Sequence record: MH051917
DNA from: Enterobacteria phage vB_EcoM_IME341
Length of the DNA: 64,000 nucleotides
Reading direction: 5' to 3' (one strand)
Shown here: positions 3,040 to 34,204 of the stretch, piece after piece
How positions within the stretch are numbered: the stretch's first letter is position 1
Layout of the letters: each line of letters begins with the position of its first letter
Translations under genes and position numbers: made by a program
The notes under the pieces: model-generated
Told to the model about the DNA's origin: nothing
Database searches by the model: none
Seen by the model: only the letters and a program-made list of their open reading frames with translations

Positions 3040-3540
3040 ATGAATATGCAAATGATTACTAACGAAATGGTTGTTAAGGCTTTTGGTGACTCTACTGACG
3101 GTATCCAAGTTTTTAAAGGTTCTCGTGCAGTAGGTTACCTGACCGATCTTCGTGTTACTTTAGCTAAAAATGCTAAAAAGAAAATCAAGCAAAAAGAATA
3201 CTCTACCCGTTATGCAGAAGAAAAGCGTGAAGCCATGCCTGAAGCTGTTAACTCTATGGTTGAGTTTCTCCAAAACAACCTTTCCAAGTACGATGCCGAG
3301 GTATTCATTAATATTAGCCAACCTAATGTTAAAATCTCAGGCATCACTTTCTATTTGATTTGTGACCCATTAAGCGACAAGTTTAATCGCCTTGGCATTT
3401 CAAGTCCTTACCATACCGCTGAAGAATTATGTTTTATGTTCGAAACGTACAAAATTCAGTGCGAAAATCCTAAAACGGTTCTTATTAATTCCCTGTCACG
3501 TGATGACATCATCGAGATTATTACCAAATGTCTAAATTAA
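3040..3540 (+). CDS. Hypothetical early protein; candidate Alc homologue by position and size only
   Basis: 166-aa ORF with GAGGAG Shine-Dalgarno immediately after rnlA; T4 has the 167-aa alc gene at this position. I cannot verify sequence similarity from memory. Confidence 0.5.
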   Translation: MNMQMITNEMVVKAFGDSTDGIQVFKGSRAVGYLTDLRVTLAKNAKKKIKQKEYSTRYAEEKREAMPEAVNSMVEFLQNNLSKYDAEVFINISQPNVKISGITFYLICDPLSDKFNRLGISSPYHTAEELCFMFETYKIQCENPKTVLINSLSRDDIIEIITKCLN

Positions 3541-3881
3541 GTATTTACCTTTTAGCTGGAGCCATTGCAGTAGGTGCTTACGGTTTTATTTCGTATCAAT
3601 CAAGTCGTATTGATACCCTTACTGAAGAACTGAAAACTACCCAGCAAACGGCCAAACAGAATGCCGAAGCCGTGGATGACCTACGTGGCCAATACTCGGA
3701 TATTGAATTCCGCACTACTGAAATGAATGCCCGATTGGATAAAATTAAGGTAGAAAATGAAAAGCTCCGTAAAGATTCGAAGAAGGCGCACGTGGTGGCA
3801 AGTAAGCCAGGACTGGTCGAAAAACAAATCAACAAGTCCTTCGATTCCTTTACAGAAGACTTCAGGAGCATTACAGAATGA
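3528..3881 (+). CDS. i-spanin (Rz-like, T4 PseT.3 equivalent)
   Basis: 117 aa; N-terminal transmembrane helix (LSIYLLAGAIAVGAYGFISY) followed by a charged coiled-coil periplasmic domain; immediately precedes a lipoprotein ORF. Confidence 0.75.
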   Translation: MSKLSIYLLAGAIAVGAYGFISYQSSRIDTLTEELKTTQQTAKQNAEAVDDLRGQYSDIEFRTTEMNARLDKIKVENEKLRKDSKKAHVVASKPGLVEKQINKSFDSFTEDFRSITE

Positions 3882-4168
3882 TTAAATTATCTGTAGTAGT
3901 ATTATCTATTGGCATGTTAGTTGGATGTGCCCAGGACATCCCTGTAGTGCCTAAGCAACAACTGCATCCTTCATGGCCACAACCTATTGCCGAACATAAT
4001 GTTAAGTGGCAGGTTAAGGTAATCGACGGTAAGGCCTGGGTTGGAATGCCGTTTGAAGATTCCCAAGAACATCGTATTTGGTTGAATGACGTAAAAAGAT
4101 ATGTACAAGACCAGAAATCTATGTTATGTTATTATCGTTCCGGGTTAAAAGAGGAGAAGTGCAAATGA
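3878..4168 (+). CDS. o-spanin (Rz1-like outer-membrane lipoprotein, T4 PseT.2 equivalent)
   Basis: 96 aa; signal peptide with lipobox (SIGMLVGC|AQ), proline-rich mature region; ATGA overlap with the i-spanin stop. Confidence 0.75.
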   Translation: MIKLSVVVLSIGMLVGCAQDIPVVPKQQLHPSWPQPIAEHNVKWQVKVIDGKAWVGMPFEDSQEHRIWLNDVKRYVQDQKSMLCYYRSGLKEEKCK

Positions 4169-4269
4169 TTGAGTGTAGTCTTGGTTGGGATGCCGTTAGA
4201 TTAGCTATCGCATTCTTTTGCTTCGGGATTGCGTTCAGTATGTGTATTGATGGTCTTTTTGGAAAGTAG
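4165..4269 (+). CDS. Possible 34-aa hydrophobic peptide translationally coupled to the o-spanin
   Basis: ATG overlaps the o-spanin stop (ATGA); MIECSLGWDAVRLAIAFFCFGIAFSMCIDGLFGK has one predicted transmembrane segment. Below the ORF-track size cutoff. Confidence 0.3.
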   Translation: MIECSLGWDAVRLAIAFFCFGIAFSMCIDGLFGK

Positions 4270-4298
4270 TTTACAAACTCTTGGGAGCAGAGTATAAT
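4269..4298 (+). promoter_or_regulatory. Early promoter, canonical T4 type
   Basis: GTTTAC-N17-gTATAAT. Confidence 0.65.
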
Positions 4299-4333
4299 GC
4301 TCCTACGGATTATAAAAAATTGAGGAAATTATT

Positions 4334-4812
4334 ATGACTTTACGTGATAACAGTTTTGTGGCTAAGCCTGAATACATTTCAGGTGTTAAATCTCCTGCAT
4401 TACAAAAGCTCCTTAAGCTAGGGTCCTGTGCAAGTACACCACTTGAAAAGAAGGCAACTTTCGATTTTGCTTGGGCTATGGTAGACGGTATTGATGTAGT
4501 AAGACAGGTAACTTTTTATGCTCCAGGGTCTATTGAGCCTTCGCAGATTATTAATTTGGATGGAAGTAATTATATTACCATCCAACAATGGTATCGTATG
4601 ATGCGCCCGGTTTGGGAATACCCTGAATTCGTTGAAGAATATAATGAAAAAGAACGTATTCGTGAATTGGTGAAAAGTTTTGAATATGCGGCTAAACGCC
4701 ATGGTCAAATGCAATCCGCAGTAACCCTTGGCGATGTTCCTGAAAGTGTTGCTTACGAATCAGGTAAAACCCTTAAAACTTGCCGTGAAGAACTTTATAA
4801 GGAACTTGGCGT

Positions 4813-4816
<4 letters not shown>
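4334..4816 (+). CDS. Hypothetical early protein (pseT.1-region ORF)
   Basis: 160-aa ORF downstream of a canonical early promoter (GTTTAC-N17-TATAAT at about 4269-4298) with an AGGAAA Shine-Dalgarno. Confidence 0.6.
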
Positions 4817-6016
<1,200 letters not shown>

Positions 6017-6017
<1 letters not shown>

Positions 6018-6214
6018 TGAATAATATCGAAAAGATTTTTCGTACAATCGAAGAAATTGAAAAACGTAAATGCTTTTTCTTCGGCGTATGGCCTTTAACT
6101 GATGGACGTATTGGCCTGGATGTTATGGACTATAAAGATGAAGACAAGGTCGATGGTGGTATTTTTAAATCCGCTCCTGAACTCCTTGCCTTCTTGGAAG
6201 AACATTATGTATAA
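6017..6214 (+). CDS. Hypothetical small protein (cd.x-region ORF)
   Basis: ATG overlaps the pseT stop (TAATG); 65 aa from the internal Met of track ORF 5987..6214. Confidence 0.45.
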
Positions 6215-6422
6215 CAAACACCATGAAGTTGAAGAAGAAGCTTATAAAGAGCTTCAGAAACTGGTAGGTCAGAATATGTCTCCTACCCTCATTAACTCAC
6301 TAGCGGCCCTTCGTAATGACCTCAACGAACGTTACAAAGGCGAGTACTATGTTGAGTTTGTTCCTCTGACTGAAGTCGTTGACCGGTTTATTGTTAACGT
6401 GAAGGTCCATACAGTACACTGA
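6207..6422 (+). CDS. Hypothetical small protein
   Basis: Internal ATG of track ORF 6102..6422 positioned at the upstream stop; 71 aa. Confidence 0.45.
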   Translation: MYNKHHEVEEEAYKELQKLVGQNMSPTLINSLAALRNDLNERYKGEYYVEFVPLTEVVDRFIVNVKVHTVH

Positions 6423-11620: not shown

Positions 11621-11836
11621 ATGTTTAAGAAATTGATTCAGAAATTATTAGGTACGGAAATGGTCGAAGTGACTTATCGTGTGACTGATGTTTCTCCTCA
11701 TACGGCAGACCATTTAGAACCTTATATCACGACAATTAAAATGCCGAAATATGACGGTGGGTTATCCATTGAAGACCGTCTGCCGGGTTACGGGCACTGG
11801 GCTGATGTCGAAATTATAAGTGTCAAAGATGTCTGA
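11621..11836 (+). CDS. Hypothetical protein
   Basis: 71-aa ORF with GAGG Shine-Dalgarno. Confidence 0.5.
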   Translation: MFKKLIQKLLGTEMVEVTYRVTDVSPHTADHLEPYITTIKMPKYDGGLSIEDRLPGYGHWADVEIISVKDV

Positions 11837-12287
11837 GTTAGAAATCAGAAGTAATTTCCCGTGGCCATCATGCGCATTAAGTAACTTTGCTAAATGGCCT
11901 TTCGTTATGGATGGTATCCAATTTGGTGGACTCGAAGGATTCCTCCAAGGATGTAAGGTGAAAAATCATGAACAGCAAAAACGTATATTCAGAATGTCAG
12001 GCCTGGACGCACAAAAAGCTGGACGAACTTATGCTAGAGCTCAGGACCGTGGGACGCTGTTCTGGCTTGGAACTCCCATTTCAAGATACTCTACAGCATG
12101 GAAAGAGTTGTACGAAAATGCTTATTTTGAAGCAGCGATCCAAAACCCAGGATTTCGCGATGCGTTACAATCCACAAAAGGTAGGGTTTTAAAGCATTCG
12201 ATGGCAAGCCACCTTACAGAATGTGATACAATACTAACTGAAAAAGAGTTTATCGACATCCTAAACAAATTGAGAGATTTATTATGA
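11829..12287 (+). CDS. NADAR/YbiA-like (DUF1768) domain protein, T4 30.3-like
   Basis: About 152 aa from the first ATG (track start at 11820 is GTG); motif pattern ...SNFPWPSCALSNF..W.F...GIQFGGLEGFLQGCK... resembles NADAR-family proteins. Family call from memory only. Confidence 0.5.
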   Translation: MSELEIRSNFPWPSCALSNFAKWPFVMDGIQFGGLEGFLQGCKVKNHEQQKRIFRMSGLDAQKAGRTYARAQDRGTLFWLGTPISRYSTAWKELYENAYFEAAIQNPGFRDALQSTKGRVLKHSMASHLTECDTILTEKEFIDILNKLRDLL

Positions 12288-12922
12288 AACCAGTTATCTT
12301 AACAGATATCGATGGAGTATGTTTAAGTTGGCAGTCTGGCTTGCCTTATTTCGCACAGAAATATAATTTGCCTTTAGAACATATTTTGAATATGATTCAG
12401 GACGAACGTTTCTTATCTCCTGGTGAGCTGTTTAATTGTGATAATGAATTAGGCGCTCGTTTAATCGAGAAATATAATCAGTCGGATTTTATTCGTTATC
12501 TGTCTCCTTACATGGACGCATTAAAACATATCAACAAGCTCAAAAAAGACTTCGATTTTGTAGCCGTGACTGCGCTAGGCGACTCAATTGATGCACTGCT
12601 GAATAGACAATTCAATTTGAATGCTTTGTTCCCTGGCGCATTCAAGGAGATTCTGATGTGTGGTCATTCAGAATCAAAAGAAGACCTCTTCATAAGAGCT
12701 AAAAATACGTACGGTAAACGTATTAAGTTTTATGTTGATGATTTGGCTCACCACTGTGATGCCGCATCTAATGTTCTCATGGATATCCAAGTTTATTGGT
12801 TAGCTCGTGGTGAACGTGATTTTAAACCTAATTTAGCCGTAAAGGTTAATTCATGGGACGATATCGCAGCAATCGAATCCCTTCGTAATAATGCCGCAGT
12901 TGAATGGATTGCTCGAGGTTAA
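12284..12922 (+). CDS. HAD-superfamily hydrolase-like protein (putative nucleotidase/phosphatase)
   Basis: 212 aa; N-terminal HAD motif I (VILTDIDGV) and C-terminal Asp-rich motif (FYVDDLAHH); ATGA overlap with the upstream gene. Confidence 0.55.
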   Translation: MKPVILTDIDGVCLSWQSGLPYFAQKYNLPLEHILNMIQDERFLSPGELFNCDNELGARLIEKYNQSDFIRYLSPYMDALKHINKLKKDFDFVAVTALGDSIDALLNRQFNLNALFPGAFKEILMCGHSESKEDLFIRAKNTYGKRIKFYVDDLAHHCDAASNVLMDIQVYWLARGERDFKPNLAVKVNSWDDIAAIESLRNNAAVEWIARG

Positions 12923-29937: not shown

Positions 29938-29959
29938 TATAAATATAGTTATATTTATA
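29938..29959. promoter_or_regulatory. Divergent late promoters: TATAAATA (+) for inh/hoc and TATTTATA (= TATAAATA on the minus strand) for uvsW
   Basis: TATAAATA at 29938-29945 on the plus strand; TATTTATA at 29952-29959. Confidence 0.65.
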
Positions 29960-29973
29960 CACTAGAAAAGAGA

Positions 29974-30651
29974 ATGATTATGGACCACCAATATATTGAA
30001 GAGCTTCGTGCACTCGAAGATAAAAAAGAAGCTAAAGCTAAGTTAATCGAATACGGCGAACAGTTCGGTTTAAAACTTAAGAAAACCCGTTCGTTTGATA
30101 ATTTGATTATCGATATCACTGAAGGTCTTAAAGCCCTGGCCGACGAACCACTTCCAGAAACCGAAGGTTTGTCCATTTCTGATTTGATTGATGCTGCTGA
30201 CGAACTTACAGGTTCTAATGAATTTATTGATGGAGCCGAACCTGCTAAAGAAGAAGCAACCCTGTTGTTCGATGCCCCTGAGGCTGTAGTTGAAGTCGTT
30301 GAGGTAGTCGAACTTCCTAAGGTAGAGGTTATTGAAGAGGATGTTCCGTTTGACGAAGAGAAATTCAAAGAGGCTGTAGACAAGGTTGTTGAATTGGAAA
30401 AACCTGTATTCTCTTTACCTGAAAACTTCAGCCCTAATCTTTTGCTTATTGGTAAAAACCCTGGTTACTGTACTGTTCCTTGGTGGATTTATCAATGGAT
30501 TTCTGAGACTCCGGATTGGAAAGAACGTCCGACTGCTTTCCAACATCCTACTGCACACCAAACACTATTCAGCTTGATTTATTACATCAATCGTAATGGG
30601 TCTGTTCTAATACGAGAAACTCGTAACTCATCTTTTGTCACTTTAAAATAA
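29974..30651 (+). CDS. inh: Inh, inhibitor of the prohead protease
   Basis: 225 aa; position upstream of hoc; N-terminus MDHQYIEELRALEDKKEAKAKLIEYGEQFG consistent with T4 Inh. Confidence 0.7.
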   Translation: MIMDHQYIEELRALEDKKEAKAKLIEYGEQFGLKLKKTRSFDNLIIDITEGLKALADEPLPETEGLSISDLIDAADELTGSNEFIDGAEPAKEEATLLFDAPEAVVEVVEVVELPKVEVIEEDVPFDEEKFKEAVDKVVELEKPVFSLPENFSPNLLLIGKNPGYCTVPWWIYQWISETPDWKERPTAFQHPTAHQTLFSLIYYINRNGSVLIRETRNSSFVTLK

Positions 30652-30660
30652 GGGTTTATT

Positions 30661-32079
30661 ATGGCTTATACCGTAGCTATTGCTCCTTTGGCGGCTACGG
30701 CCGTTATTGGAGCAACAACCAATTTCACTGCAACCGGCTCTGGCGCTGCAGCTGAAGGTGTTGAATCATTTGTATGGACTGTTGATGGCGTTCCACAATC
30801 TTCTGTGACTGCAGCAATGGCTTATGTCGCTGTTGGTCCGGCAGGCAGTAAGACTATTAAAGTTGTTGCAACCACCACTCCGGCAGACGGTGAACCGGAA
30901 ACTGCTGAGGCTGAGACAACTTTAACTGTCCAGAATAAACCAATGCCTGCTATTACATTGACTTTGGACCCTACTTCGGTTTCTAAAGAAGTTGGCCAAT
31001 CTCAAGTTGTTACTGCTAACGTGACGGGCGCGCCTGCCGGTGCAACAATTGCTTATGTTTGGAAACGTAACACTAGTGTAATCTCTGGACAAACTGGTAA
31101 AACTATTACCGTAACCGAAGCGGCAGCAGCAAATTACACTTTAAACTGTGAAGTCACCGTTACTGCACCTGATTATACTTCAGCTACCGCTACTAAAGGT
31201 GCTGCGGTAACTTTTGTTAAGAAAACTATATCAGGTGTTTCTGTTACTTTAACGCCCGCCTCAATTAGTACAGAGAAAGACTCACCTGCACAGTTTAAAG
31301 CGGATGTAGTCGGCGCCCCTTCCGGTGTAAATGCAACTTATTCTTGGAAGAAAAACGGTTCTATTATTCCAGGCGAAAGCAGTAATATTCTTGCTGTTGA
31401 TACGTCTACAATAGGTTCTTACTCTATTGAAGTTTCGGTAGTCCTAACAGGTACGGATTATAATGATTTAACTGTTACCAAAACAGGAAGTGTAACAATT
31501 ACTAAAAAGACTATGGCGGGTGTTTCCGTTAATTTAACGCCTGCTTCTATTACTGTCTCTGAAGGAACCCCAGCTTCTTTTAAAGCCACAGTAGCCGGTG
31601 CGCCTAGTGGTGCTACTTTTGCCTATTCTTGGAAGAAAGACGGTTCACCTGTTGTGGGTACTACAGATACATTAGTAATTGACACAAGCGCCGAAGGTTC
31701 ACAGGTTATTGAAGTTTCTGCTGTTGTTTCGGCGACCGATTATAATCCAGTGACAGTCAAAAAAACAGGTAATGTAACAATTACGGCTAAAGTAGCTCCT
31801 GAACCAGAGGGCGAACTACCTTACGTTCATCCGCTACCAGTTCGTAATTCAGCTTATATTTGGTGTGGTTGGTGGGTTATGGATGAAATCCAGAAAATGA
31901 CTCTTGAAGGCAAAGACTGGAAAACTGACGAACCTGATAGTGAATATTATCTCCATCGTTATACCCTTCAAAAAATGGTAGCCGATTATCCTGAGGTTGA
32001 TTTACAGGAATCTCGTAATGGTAGAATTATTCACAGAACCGCTTTGGATGCTGGAATTATTTACGATTACGTTTATTAA
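30661..32079 (+). CDS. hoc: Hoc, outer capsid decoration protein with tandem Ig-like domains
   Basis: 472 aa; T4 Hoc-like N-terminus and highly similar C-terminal capsid-binding region (AKVAPEPEGELPYVHPLP.R.SAYIWCGWWVMDEIQKMT.EGKDWKTD); about four Ig-like repeats versus three remembered for T4 (376 aa). Confidence 0.92.
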   Translation: MAYTVAIAPLAATAVIGATTNFTATGSGAAAEGVESFVWTVDGVPQSSVTAAMAYVAVGPAGSKTIKVVATTTPADGEPETAEAETTLTVQNKPMPAITLTLDPTSVSKEVGQSQVVTANVTGAPAGATIAYVWKRNTSVISGQTGKTITVTEAAAANYTLNCEVTVTAPDYTSATATKGAAVTFVKKTISGVSVTLTPASISTEKDSPAQFKADVVGAPSGVNATYSWKKNGSIIPGESSNILAVDTSTIGSYSIEVSVVLTGTDYNDLTVTKTGSVTITKKTMAGVSVNLTPASITVSEGTPASFKATVAGAPSGATFAYSWKKDGSPVVGTTDTLVIDTSAEGSQVIEVSAVVSATDYNPVTVKKTGNVTITAKVAPEPEGELPYVHPLPVRNSAYIWCGWWVMDEIQKMTLEGKDWKTDEPDSEYYLHRYTLQKMVADYPEVDLQESRNGRIIHRTALDAGIIYDYVY

Positions 32080-32083
32080 TAAA

Positions 32084-32108
32084 GGGCCTTGCGGCCCTTA
32101 TTTAGTTT
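32084..32108 (+). terminator. Rho-independent terminator after hoc
   Basis: GGGCC-TTGC-GGCCC hairpin followed by TTATTTAGTTT; the same hairpin sequence recurs at 58281. Confidence 0.7.
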
Positions 32109-32161
32109 ATGATATTTTAGGAGATTAAGTTATTGACGAATAATTTTTAATAGGTGAATAT

Positions 32162-32341
32162 ATGAAATTTAACAAATATATATGGGTGTTGATTTTCTTT
32201 ATAGTGCTATTTTTGTTTTCGTTAATTTCATTAACTAGTGTGATGTTTGCTTCTATATTGGCTCTTTTCACCTGCATTAGTTCCTTTTTTGGGATAATAG
32301 CTACTATAGATAAAATTTTACGTACCAAAAAGGGCCCTTAG
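32162..32341 (+). CDS. Small membrane protein (59 aa, two predicted transmembrane segments), not in the ORF track
   Basis: AGGTGA Shine-Dalgarno before ATG; MKFNKYIWVLIFFIVLFLFSLISLTSVMFASILALFTCISSFFGIIATIDKILRTKKGP; flanked by GC hairpins on both sides. Confidence 0.45.
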   Translation: MKFNKYIWVLIFFIVLFLFSLISLTSVMFASILALFTCISSFFGIIATIDKILRTKKGP

Positions 32342-32346
32342 GCCCT
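32332..32346. other. GC hairpin after the small membrane-peptide ORF
   Basis: GGGCCC-TTA-GGCCC with an A-run on the 5' side; its orientation suggests termination of antisense transcription or a stability element. Confidence 0.4.
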
Positions 32347-32441
32347 TCCCTAAAAGCTTGCTTTATAATTCACGCCCATAACTTTGAGAAGAACCCAGCA
32401 TAGTGAGCCTAAGGTGCTACTTGTCCTACCATGAATCTCCT

Positions 32442-32472
32442 GTTTACAAGTTAAAATTCTCATGTTACTATT
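32442..32472 (+). promoter_or_regulatory. Early promoter-like element
   Basis: GTTTAC-N19-TACTAT upstream of ORF 32500. Confidence 0.5.
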
Positions 32473-32826: not shown

Positions 32827-33195
32827 ATGCCGCTTCTTAAAAAGAGAAATGGTGCCACCCGTCAGGTCTTCCTGACGAAACGATACGCCATCAAAATACC
32901 CAGTTTCTATAGTTGGAAATTGTTTTTAACTGGATTATGTTGTAATATAACAGAACATGAGTTTACATCTTTGAATGACTCGTATTTGTGCCCTGTTATA
33001 TGGAAATCTTGGTTAGGACTCGTTATAGTTATGCCAAGAGCTAAAGAAGTTACTAATATCGGGTTGTGGAAAACAGAAATACACCATGCTAGGCACCACA
33101 CTCTGGTAGAAAGCCTGTATATGTCTGATTGCAAGCCTTCAAATTATGGTTACCTTAAAGGTAAATTGGTTAAAATTGATTATGGAAGCAAATAA
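32827..33195 (+). CDS. Hypothetical protein with protein-kinase-like motifs (truncated kinase-like fold)
   Basis: 122 aa; YAIK (beta-3 lysine-like), DCKPSN (catalytic-loop-like D-x-K-P-x-N) and KIDYG (DFG-like) in kinase order; stop abuts the rnlB start. Confidence 0.5.
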
Positions 33196-33196
33196 T

Positions 33197-34204
33197 ATGT
33201 TCAAGAAATATAGCAGTCTCGAAAACCATTACAACAGTAAGTTTATCGAAAAACTCCGTACTAATGGTTTGACTGGTGGTGAATGGGTAGCACGTGAGAA
33301 GATTCATGGGACCAACTTTAGTTTAATCATAGAACGTGACGCAGTCACATGCGCCAAGCGCACTGGCCCTATCCTCCCTGCTGAAGATTTCTATGGCTAT
33401 GAAATTGTACTCAAGAACTATGCTGATTCTATTAAATCTGTTCAACATCTAATTGAATCGATTAATTACCAGTCGTACCAGATTTATGGTGAATTCGCTG
33501 GGCCAGGTATCCAGAAGAATGTGGACTACGGTGATAAAGACTTTTATGTGTTCGATATCCGAGTTACTAAGGAAGATGGTTCAGAATCTGTTCTAACCGA
33601 TACATTGATGGAAGCCTTCTGTATTATCCATAAGTTTAAGGTAGCTCCATGTCTGGCTACAGGTAGCTTTGAAGACCTTATTAAATTACCTAATGACTTT
33701 GATTCAGTTATTCCTGATTATAATTTTGCGGTGGATAACGCTGGCCTAACTATTGCAAACTCGACAGACTTTATTCCTAAGGTAGAAGGTAAAGTATTCA
33801 CGGCTGAAGGCTTTGTACTTAAACCTGATATTCCTACCTGGCTTCCAAACGGAAATCGTGTAGCGATTAAATGTAAGAACTCTAAATTCAGCGAGAAGAA
33901 AAAGTCTGATAAGCCTATTAAGGCTGCGGTAGTTTTATCCCAAGATGATATGGATTTGCTGTGGCAATTCACTGATTATGTGACAGTTAACCGTATCAAT
34001 AACGTTATTAGTAAGATTGGCGAAGTATCACCTAAAGATTTTGGAAAGGTAATGGGCTTGACGGTCCAAGATATCCTTGAAGAAGCTGCCCGTGAAGAAT
34101 TGGAATTAACTGACGCTGAAAATCCTGTTGAAGTTAAAAAGCAGCTCATTGAGTGCGTAAAAGAAACATTAAGACATGTTTGGATTGAACTAGTATCCAA
34201 ATAA
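33197..34204 (+). CDS. rnlB: RNA ligase 2 (RnlB)
   Basis: From the internal Met [20 protein letters not shown]...: near-identical to T4 Rnl2 ([15 protein letters not shown] lysine-adenylation motif, [23 protein letters not shown]). Confidence 0.95.

Follow-up and report, generated by a model that had tools for sequence, protein, structure and literature searches.

The 472-aa open reading frame that we examined lies in a 64,000-nucleotide stretch of Enterobacteria phage vB_EcoM_IME341 (record MH051917; the whole stretch is hereafter the window), and it is very probably the functional hoc of a T4-like coliphage of the Dhakavirus type, encoding a monomeric fibre with four Ig-like domains that belongs to an established, JS10-type allele class and reached this genome by recombination. 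A first reading of the sequence had proposed that Hoc is 472 aa long here against 376 aa in T4, and that the additional length corresponds to roughly one more Ig-like repeat of about 95 aa. The T4 length is right and the 96-aa difference is real, because the T4 GT7 record (CDS of 1131 nt) and PMC10385173 both give 376 aa; the gap amounts to one domain, and the two peptide stretches that had been quoted as examples of the repeat occupy aa 191-233 and 286-328 of the translation.

The hoc gene and its surroundings

The open reading frame matches the PHROG 1149 profile ('Hoc-like head decoration') with an E value of 9e-130 and the T4 Hoc chains in the PDB (5vf3, 8t1x and 8t9r) with an E value of 3e-123, and the Pfam models I-set, Ig_3 and Ig_2 score above their curated cut-offs, with aa 290-352 the best stretch for I-set and Ig_3. 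No evidence contradicts the identity of the gene, and judged from its sequence the frame is an intact hoc. Its product has the features of the Hoc family, namely a C-terminal capsid-binding domain, a tandem string of Ig-like domains, a late head-gene position and an acidic pI, computed as 4.82 against 4.74 for T4 Hoc; a pI of about 4-5 is typical of Hocs (PMC10385173).

A domain HMM built from the Ig domains of the window and T4 Hocs divides the protein into four back-to-back Ig-like domains, D1 to D4 (aa 1-93, 94-188, 189-283 and 284 to about 377), each 93-95 aa long, and the same HMM finds three domains in T4 Hoc, two in JS98 Hoc and five in some metagenomic relatives. The Ig string has one conserved tryptophan per 95 residues, at positions 39, 134, 229 and 324. 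In an AF2 model made from a shallow alignment of 22 sequences the string is predicted to form four beta-sandwiches (pLDDT about 81-97, mostly above 90), and with this model Foldseek matched four-Ig strings (Sidekick, Dscam) as well as the N-terminal part of RB49 Hoc (PDB 3shs, E value 6e-11), which is likewise a linear Ig-like string, but with 16% sequence identity and three domains in the crystal. The C-terminal domain was modelled with low confidence (pLDDT 33-65), and because this part of the model is poor we take its fold from the 84% identity to T4 Hoc. That identity bears out the conservation of the capsid-binding C-terminus claimed in the original prediction, as does the tryptophan cluster of T4 Hoc (Trp306/309/310/325), which is kept as Trp401/404/405/420. 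Pfam and NCBIfam have no family that represents either the capsid-binding domain of Hoc or Inh, the product of the gene immediately upstream.

The gene order in this region (Table 1) is uvsW on the minus strand, inh, hoc, a 24.3-like gene and rnlB, with 9 nt between the end of inh at 30651 and the start of hoc at 30661, and inh-hoc-24.3/rnlB is also the order in IME08, JS98, VR20 and Tequatrovirus JK23. By analogy with T4, the late promoter motif TATAAATA ahead of inh probably gives rise to a late inh-hoc transcript. The terminator-like site that follows hoc comes from a consensus scan in which the number of such sites in the region was no greater than in shuffles. The window comes from a Dhakavirus-type T4-like coliphage with a backbone closest to that of IME08; over 24 kb of backbone (20000-44000) it is 98.2% identical to IME08 and 94.9% identical to JS98.

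Table 1. Features in and around hoc, in window positions
Feature	Position	Strand	Basis and remarks
T4-type late promoter motif TATAAATA (putative)	29938..29945	+	exact consensus match, 29 nt upstream of the inh start codon
inh	29974..30651	+	inhibitor of prohead protease gp21; PHROG 1051, E 2.8e-91; 100% identical to a 223-aa cluster named Inh
hoc CDS	30661..32079	+	ATG start, 472 aa plus stop; PHROG 1149 and PDB T4 Hoc matches
Ig-like D1 (aa 1-93)	30661..30939	+	ortholog of T4 Hoc domain 1, 55% identity; AF2 beta-sandwich, pLDDT 81-92
Ig-like D2 (aa 94-188)	30940..31224	+	'B' type, common to Dhakavirus, Gaprivervirus and Klebsiella phages; 27% to T4 domain 2; AF2 pLDDT 92-96
Ig-like D3 (aa 189-283)	31225..31509	+	discrete subtype, 58% to D4; absent from T4, IME08, VR20 and JS98; AF2 pLDDT 92-97
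Ig-like D4 (aa 284-378)	31510..31794	+	ortholog of T4 Hoc domain 3, 60% identity
Capsid-binding C-terminal domain (aa 379-472, about 94 aa)	31795..32076	+	84% identical to T4 Hoc 283-376; PHROG 21694, E 1e-39
Terminator-like site	32082..32099	+	GC-rich hairpin and T-rich tail, 3 nt past the hoc stop codon; consensus scan

The additional domain and its age

Comparison with T4 Hoc domain by domain gives 55% identity between D1 and T4 domain 1, each being the best match of the other, 60% between D4 and T4 domain 3 and 51% between D3 and T4 domain 3; D3 and D4 are 58% identical to one another. A neighbour-joining tree was made from 47 domains of about 95 aa, taken from 13 Hocs; it is midpoint-rooted and without support values, and in it all D1 domains group together and D3 forms its own clade. 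Because of these identities and this tree, we identify D3 as the domain that is absent from T4 Hoc. A different impression arises when T4 and many Tequatrovirus records are judged by their best single tblastn alignment, which spans only residues 97/98-470 of the query, as if T4 Hoc corresponded roughly to residues 98-470 and the additional domain were the N-terminal D1. Such a placement is very improbable, since D1 and T4 domain 1 are best matches in both directions, T4 domain 1 is unlike D2 (21% identity) and the D1 domains form a single cluster in the tree; the alignment of 98-470 is an artefact of one ungapped-order HSP forced through paralogous repeats. The domain identities and the domain tree thus refute an N-terminal addition. 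With D3 as the additional domain, the order may be written A-B-C3-C4-X, in which A corresponds to T4 domain 1, B is a clade-specific middle domain, C3 and C4 are old paralogues of one another, both of the T4 domain-3 type, and X is the capsid-binding domain. The protein is therefore like T4 Hoc in gene position, in the types of its first and last Ig domains, in its C-terminal domain and in its acidic pI, and unlike it in that T4 Hoc has three Ig domains, lacks an equivalent of D3 and carries a middle domain of another type.

The original prediction also held that adjacent repeats are clearly similar, and D3 and D4 are indeed identical at 55/95 residues (58%; BLASTP E value 6e-34). Their adjacency and likeness, together with direct DNA repeats spaced 282-285 nt, would suit a domain 4 that was copied in tandem not long ago and in this phage alone, or a repeat that was expanded in error during assembly, but either origin is extremely improbable. 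The DNA of D3 and D4 is only 62.8% identical, and 45.7% identical at third codon positions; Tandem Repeats Finder reports no array in hoc because the domain repeats are too diverged in DNA, which counts against a recent duplication. D3 orthologues with 91-96% identity are found in 14 independent phage records (dhabil, dhaeg, MN01, CUA3, TH44, Ec2-ASingh, ABTNLsp5, Esco_phi_B-01, and two each for CLB_P2, vB_EcoM_005 and JS10), followed by a clean drop to 65% or less in all other records, and D3 stands apart as a clade in the domain tree. A recent duplication or assembly artefact is refuted by these orthologues and by the low DNA identity. D3 thus marks an allele class, and its paralogy with D4 and with T4 domain 3 is old.

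Allele class, domain number and recombination among relatives

The Hocs of JS10 (ACL78404.1, 469 aa), dhabil and dhaeg (470 aa), MN01 (QIN95397.1, 472 aa), ABTNLsp5 and TH44 share the order A-B-C3-C4-X with the window protein, at 92-96% identity in D3 and 82-92% overall. In alignment the protein is collinear with those of MN01, TH44, dhaeg, JS10 and ABTNLsp5, and CLB_P2 Hoc is of the same layout. JS10 and dhaeg Hocs are unlike it in carrying another D1 allele, with about 50% identity to D1 of the window, and within the JS10-type class the window Hoc is distinguished by an MN01/TH44-like D1 joined to a dhaeg-like stretch that extends from D2 to the C-terminus. The same mosaic is visible in the DNA. 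Sliding identity to IME08 is 95-100% up to about 30300, within inh, then drops, and recovers from about 32400. Between these points, 30500-30900 is 96-99% identical to MN01, with D1 at 96-97.5% nucleotide identity to MN01 and TH44, and over 31000-32300 successive 100-nt segments match dhaeg at 84-99% (at least 94% in 11/13 of them). By domain, nucleotide identity to dhaeg is 96.5% for D3, 92.3% for D4 and 98.6% for the C-terminal domain, and the 268 nt 3' of hoc are dhaeg-like at 92.6%. No record matches the whole Hoc, the best being MN01 with 92.4% aa identity, and the best protein cluster reaches 89%. The four-Ig allele was very probably acquired by recombination, with about 30300 to about 32400 replaced relative to IME08 by a segment that is MN01/TH44-like on its 5' side and dhaeg-like on its 3' side. 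A second, convergent Hoc-like gene of JS10, dhaeg, ABTNLsp5 and IME08 is absent from the window. On these comparisons, two traits set the window apart: its IME08-like backbone carries a new mosaic allele formed by recombination, and this second Hoc-like gene is lacking.

Close relatives also carry shorter Hocs, whose common domains are 81-97% identical to those of the window. When nine Hocs from Dhakavirus and Gaprivervirus are aligned as proteins, the length differences are clean whole-domain in-frame gaps, VR20 and IME08 (377 aa) being without exactly D3 and JS98 (282 aa) without D2 and D3. The gap edges fall in the linker and first strand, ...(V/I)(K/N)KT(M/I)xGVSV(T/N)LTP, and the DNA of the D2/D3 and D3/D4 junctions is identical at 47/66 nt, the matches being unbroken over 9 nt at most. 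Unequal recombination between domain junctions is a plausible route to these gaps.

The direction of change is a separate matter, and it leaves the identity of the gene unaffected. It is quite possible, if somewhat short of probable, that A-B-C3-C4 is the ancestral state of hoc in Dhakavirus and Gaprivervirus, and that the 377-aa and 282-aa forms are in-frame deletion derivatives produced when adjacent domains recombined at their similar linker and first-strand sequences. This reading is favoured by gaps of exactly one or two domains at KKTM-GVSV(T/N)LTP junctions, by the similarity of the two junctions and the place of D3 in a repeat family, and by the D3 clade, which branches off before D4 separates from the C domains of Klebsiella phages, so that the origin of D3 would predate the divergence of these genera. 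However, the junction homology is modest, with its longest exact match of 9 nt, and the tree that supports the deep branching has the short domains, midpoint rooting and lack of support values described above. The D3 type is moreover present in only 14 records, whereas megablast matches of any kind to the window hoc occur in 128, and gain of a cassette by recombination is therefore equally possible. A wider proposal would make hoc of Dhakavirus and Gaprivervirus a hotspot of in-frame change in domain copy number and of allele swapping, with D3 a travelling cassette of distinct glycan or surface specificity and the window a fresh three-parent recombinant that has lost its second Hoc-like gene. 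Phages with 95-98% identical flanks do carry two, three or four Ig domains, but we consider the proposal as a whole unlikely. If it were true, its novelty would lie in showing that cassettes are exchanged repeatedly at the linker and that this affects function, as variation in domain number is already published.

That published variation is broad. Among 650 Hoc homologues the count of Ig domains is lowest in Enterobacter phage PG7, with one, and highest in Serratia phage Muldoon (1174 aa), with ten, and some phages have two Hoc genes (Fokine et al. 2023, PMC10385173). The two-Ig Hoc of phage PNJ-9 binds MUC2 (Fu et al. 2024), and the 468-aa Hoc of Klebsiella phage PMBT63 has an additional Ig domain relative to T4, the phage being retained on mucin-coated plates (Ewertz et al. 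2026, PMC13435897). Literature searches on hoc of JS10/JS98, on Hoc in Dhakavirus and on Inh with Hoc and the prohead protease returned nothing relevant.

It was here that the original prediction fell short, in its implication that a four-Ig Hoc is unusual. In a sample of 60 evenly spaced records of the 1377 phage records with a tblastn match to Hoc, 14 have a four-Ig Hoc, seen as a single full-length alignment of 1371-1416 nt; 12 of these are T4-group Escherichia/Shigella phages, and the examples include Tequatrovirus JK23, BF15, Sf23, KRT47, PinkRuby and DalCa. The same layout as in the window is found in JS10, dhabil, dhaeg and MN01, among others, and a Hoc with four Ig domains has been published for PMBT63, so that the four-repeat form is largely the common state that the prediction had itself named as refuting it. 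Among the best-scoring 120 clusters at 90% identity, a ranking that favours long proteins, 88 are of 467-472 aa, 29 of 374-378 aa and 4 of 563-565 aa. In an exhaustive search of representative proteins, 133 have the Hoc capsid-binding domain; in 124 representatives (50% identity) it is C-terminal, behind N-terminal arms of about 0 to 15 domain units, most often two units (43), with three units in 19 and four units in 8. This search and the 60-record sample replaced a C-terminal domain search of a word-indexed protein database, which gave only 13 fragments and was unfit for a length census. The 575 records with a query coverage of 80% or more were likewise rejected as a count of four-Ig Hocs, because three-Ig proteins reach 100% coverage through joined paralogous pieces.

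Four Ig domains have been reached in different ways. The PMBT63 Hoc-like protein (P0047) is like that of the window in having four Ig domains and a capsid-binding domain, with 75% identity over 99% of the query, but in its Klebsiella group, as measured on KP185 (P0027, 468 aa), the third and fourth domains are both D4-type (70-76% identical to D4 and 59-62% to D3), which points to an independent duplication. Dozens of the 90%-identity clusters are 468-aa Klebsiella-phage Hocs of this kind, with a duplicated D4-type domain. JK23-type Hoc of Tequatrovirus also has 472 aa and four Ig domains, but arrives at equal length by another route, with a duplicated T4-type domain 2 (80% and 89% identical to T4 domain 2) in the order A-B'-B'-C-X. 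In protein P0033 the B domain is duplicated, and the 563-565-aa forms have B and D4-type duplications together. From these domain comparisons, four-Ig Hocs are common and arose several times, each time by duplicating different domains. The four-Ig Hoc is an already known, published and ordinary state of a highly modular protein.

The capsid-binding domain, Inh and the reach of the fibre

We note that the C-terminal 60 or so residues of Inh (aa 160-221) resemble the capsid-binding domain of Hoc, with WWIYQWI..PDWK and IRETRNS in Inh at the places of WWVMDEI..KDWK and VQESRNG in Hoc. The PHROG 1149 profile matches Inh with an E value of 7e-4, and an HMM from 130 diverse Hoc C-terminal domains scores 23-25 bits on five Inh proteins (single-sequence E values of about 1e-9 to 3e-9). 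In hhalign the Inh family alignment matches the 130-domain Hoc profile with 95.4% probability (E value 1.7e-8), and an HMM of the Inh C-terminus reciprocally matches Hoc-like representatives, including multi-domain proteins of 851 and 944 aa. A strict HMM from 35 close Hocs gives 8.7 bits on Inh (p about 1e-4), against a maximum of 6.0 bits in 2000 shuffles, and hhalign of this strict profile against Inh was not significant (2.6% probability). Pairwise BLASTP between Inh and Hoc is weak (E value 0.04), and an AF2 model of Inh, made from a shallow alignment of 27 close sequences, has pLDDT 32-48 across the C-terminal part and is too poor for a test of fold. It is probable from the profile comparisons that the C-terminus of Inh is remotely homologous to the capsid-binding domain of Hoc.

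The Hoc of T4-like phages is characterised as a protein dispensable for growth, a single copy of which sits in the middle of every gp23* hexamer of the mature capsid. By analogy with T4, the window Hoc would likewise dock as a monomer at hexamer centres through its conserved C-terminal alpha/beta domain, and its four Ig-like beta-sandwich domains would project outward in line, where T4 has three. The four-domain fibre of T4 Hoc is about 180 Å long, and if T4 is a guide one extra Ig domain would make the fibre roughly 45 Å longer. In the Hocs of T4, PNJ-6, PNJ-9 and PMBT63 the Ig domains have been reported to adhere to glycans, mucin or the bacterial surface, and work on T4 suggests that those of the window Hoc may likewise adhere weakly to such surfaces or to the glycans of mucin.

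Taken alone, this hoc is of little significance, and the practical value of the analysis is in annotation, as a JS10-type four-Ig allele in an IME08-like backbone with no second Hoc gene. The length of Hoc sets the reach of the adhesive fibres of the capsid and the Ig modules that are displayed, and as such bears on how therapeutic coliphages adhere to mucus and on display systems that use Hoc. The series of Hocs with two, three and four Ig domains on near-identical backbones may offer a natural set in which to study the effects of domain number.

Recombinant origin of the hoc region

The interval from ~30300 to ~32400 is a recombinant patch in a backbone that is otherwise IME08-like. Identity between the window and IME08 falls inside inh from 100% to 45-88% and recovers 5' of the 24.3-like gene. 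Within the patch, the 5' part resembles MN01/TH44 and the 3' part dhaeg. In the nearest relatives (see table), a convergently transcribed second Hoc-like gene of ~288 aa lies directly 3' of hoc, its product sharing 28% identity over 218 aa with the window Hoc. This gene is present in IME08, dhaeg, JS10 and ABTNLsp5, but the window lacks it, and a tblastn search of the whole window found no second Hoc-like copy. The window retains here (32080-32470) only a 268-nt dhaeg-like spacer (92.6%), after which IME08-like sequence resumes near 32430. The spacer contains a candidate 67-aa ORF flanked by two GC-rich hairpins (32082-32099 and 32334-32357), and the equivalent spacer is annotated 'hypothetical protein' in dhabil and CLB_P2. 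MN01 and TH44, the phages whose Hoc is closest overall to that of the window, carry 3' of hoc a very large ORF, annotated as hypothetical, which is absent from the window.

Features in and around the hoc region of the window and at relatives' loci (L numbers; own coordinates)
Feature	Sequence	Coordinates	Strand	Detail
inh (inhibitor of prohead protease gp21)	window	29974-30651
Hoc-C-like stretch of Inh	window	30451-30636		Inh aa 160-221
Candidate ORF in hoc-downstream spacer	window	32125-32328	-	67 aa
ORF between 24.3-like gene and rnlB	window	32827-33195	+	122 aa; PHROG 4301 (no assigned function), E 3.6e-39
Second Hoc-like gene	IME08 (L001)	11827-12693
Second Hoc-like gene	dhaeg (L006)	3404-4270
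Second Hoc-like gene	JS10 (L007)	3161-4021
Second Hoc-like gene	ABTNLsp5 (L009)	3455-4318
Large ORF 3' of hoc	MN01 (L002)	3952-6416	same as hoc	944 aa
Large ORF 3' of hoc	TH44 (L010)	from 2416	same as hoc	at least 637 aa

The ORF preceding rnlB

Because identity to IME08 collapses to 42-54% at the 122-aa ORF, sequence here seems to have been inserted or replaced by comparison with that phage. The ORF overlaps the upstream extension of the rnlB ORF as listed (33146-34204), and the real rnlB start probably lies further downstream than the listed one.

A probable Hoc-like domain in Inh, and the Hoc-like protein of a Klebsiella phage

We note that the last ~60 residues of Inh look remotely homologous to the capsid-binding domain (Hoc-C) of Hoc, the product of the adjoining gene. 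Inh was matched by the PHROG 1149 (Hoc-like head decoration) profile at E 7e-4, scored 23-25 bits against an HMM from 130 Hoc-C sequences, and aligned to Hoc-C in hhalign with 95.4% probability (E 1.7e-8); reciprocally, the Inh C-terminus matched long Hoc-like proteins. With a narrow Hoc profile Inh scored only 8.7 bits, with an hhalign probability of 2.6%; pairwise BLASTP of Inh against Hoc gave E 0.04, and the AF2 model of Inh was of poor quality. A connection between Inh and Hoc was looked for in the papers searched and not found.

The Hoc-like protein of Klebsiella phage PMBT63 has been described as having its capsid-binding domain at the N-terminus, with four Ig domains after it (PMC13435897). 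In contrast to this description, sequence matching places the capsid-binding domain of this protein at the C-terminus (residues 378-467 of 468), as in T4 Hoc.
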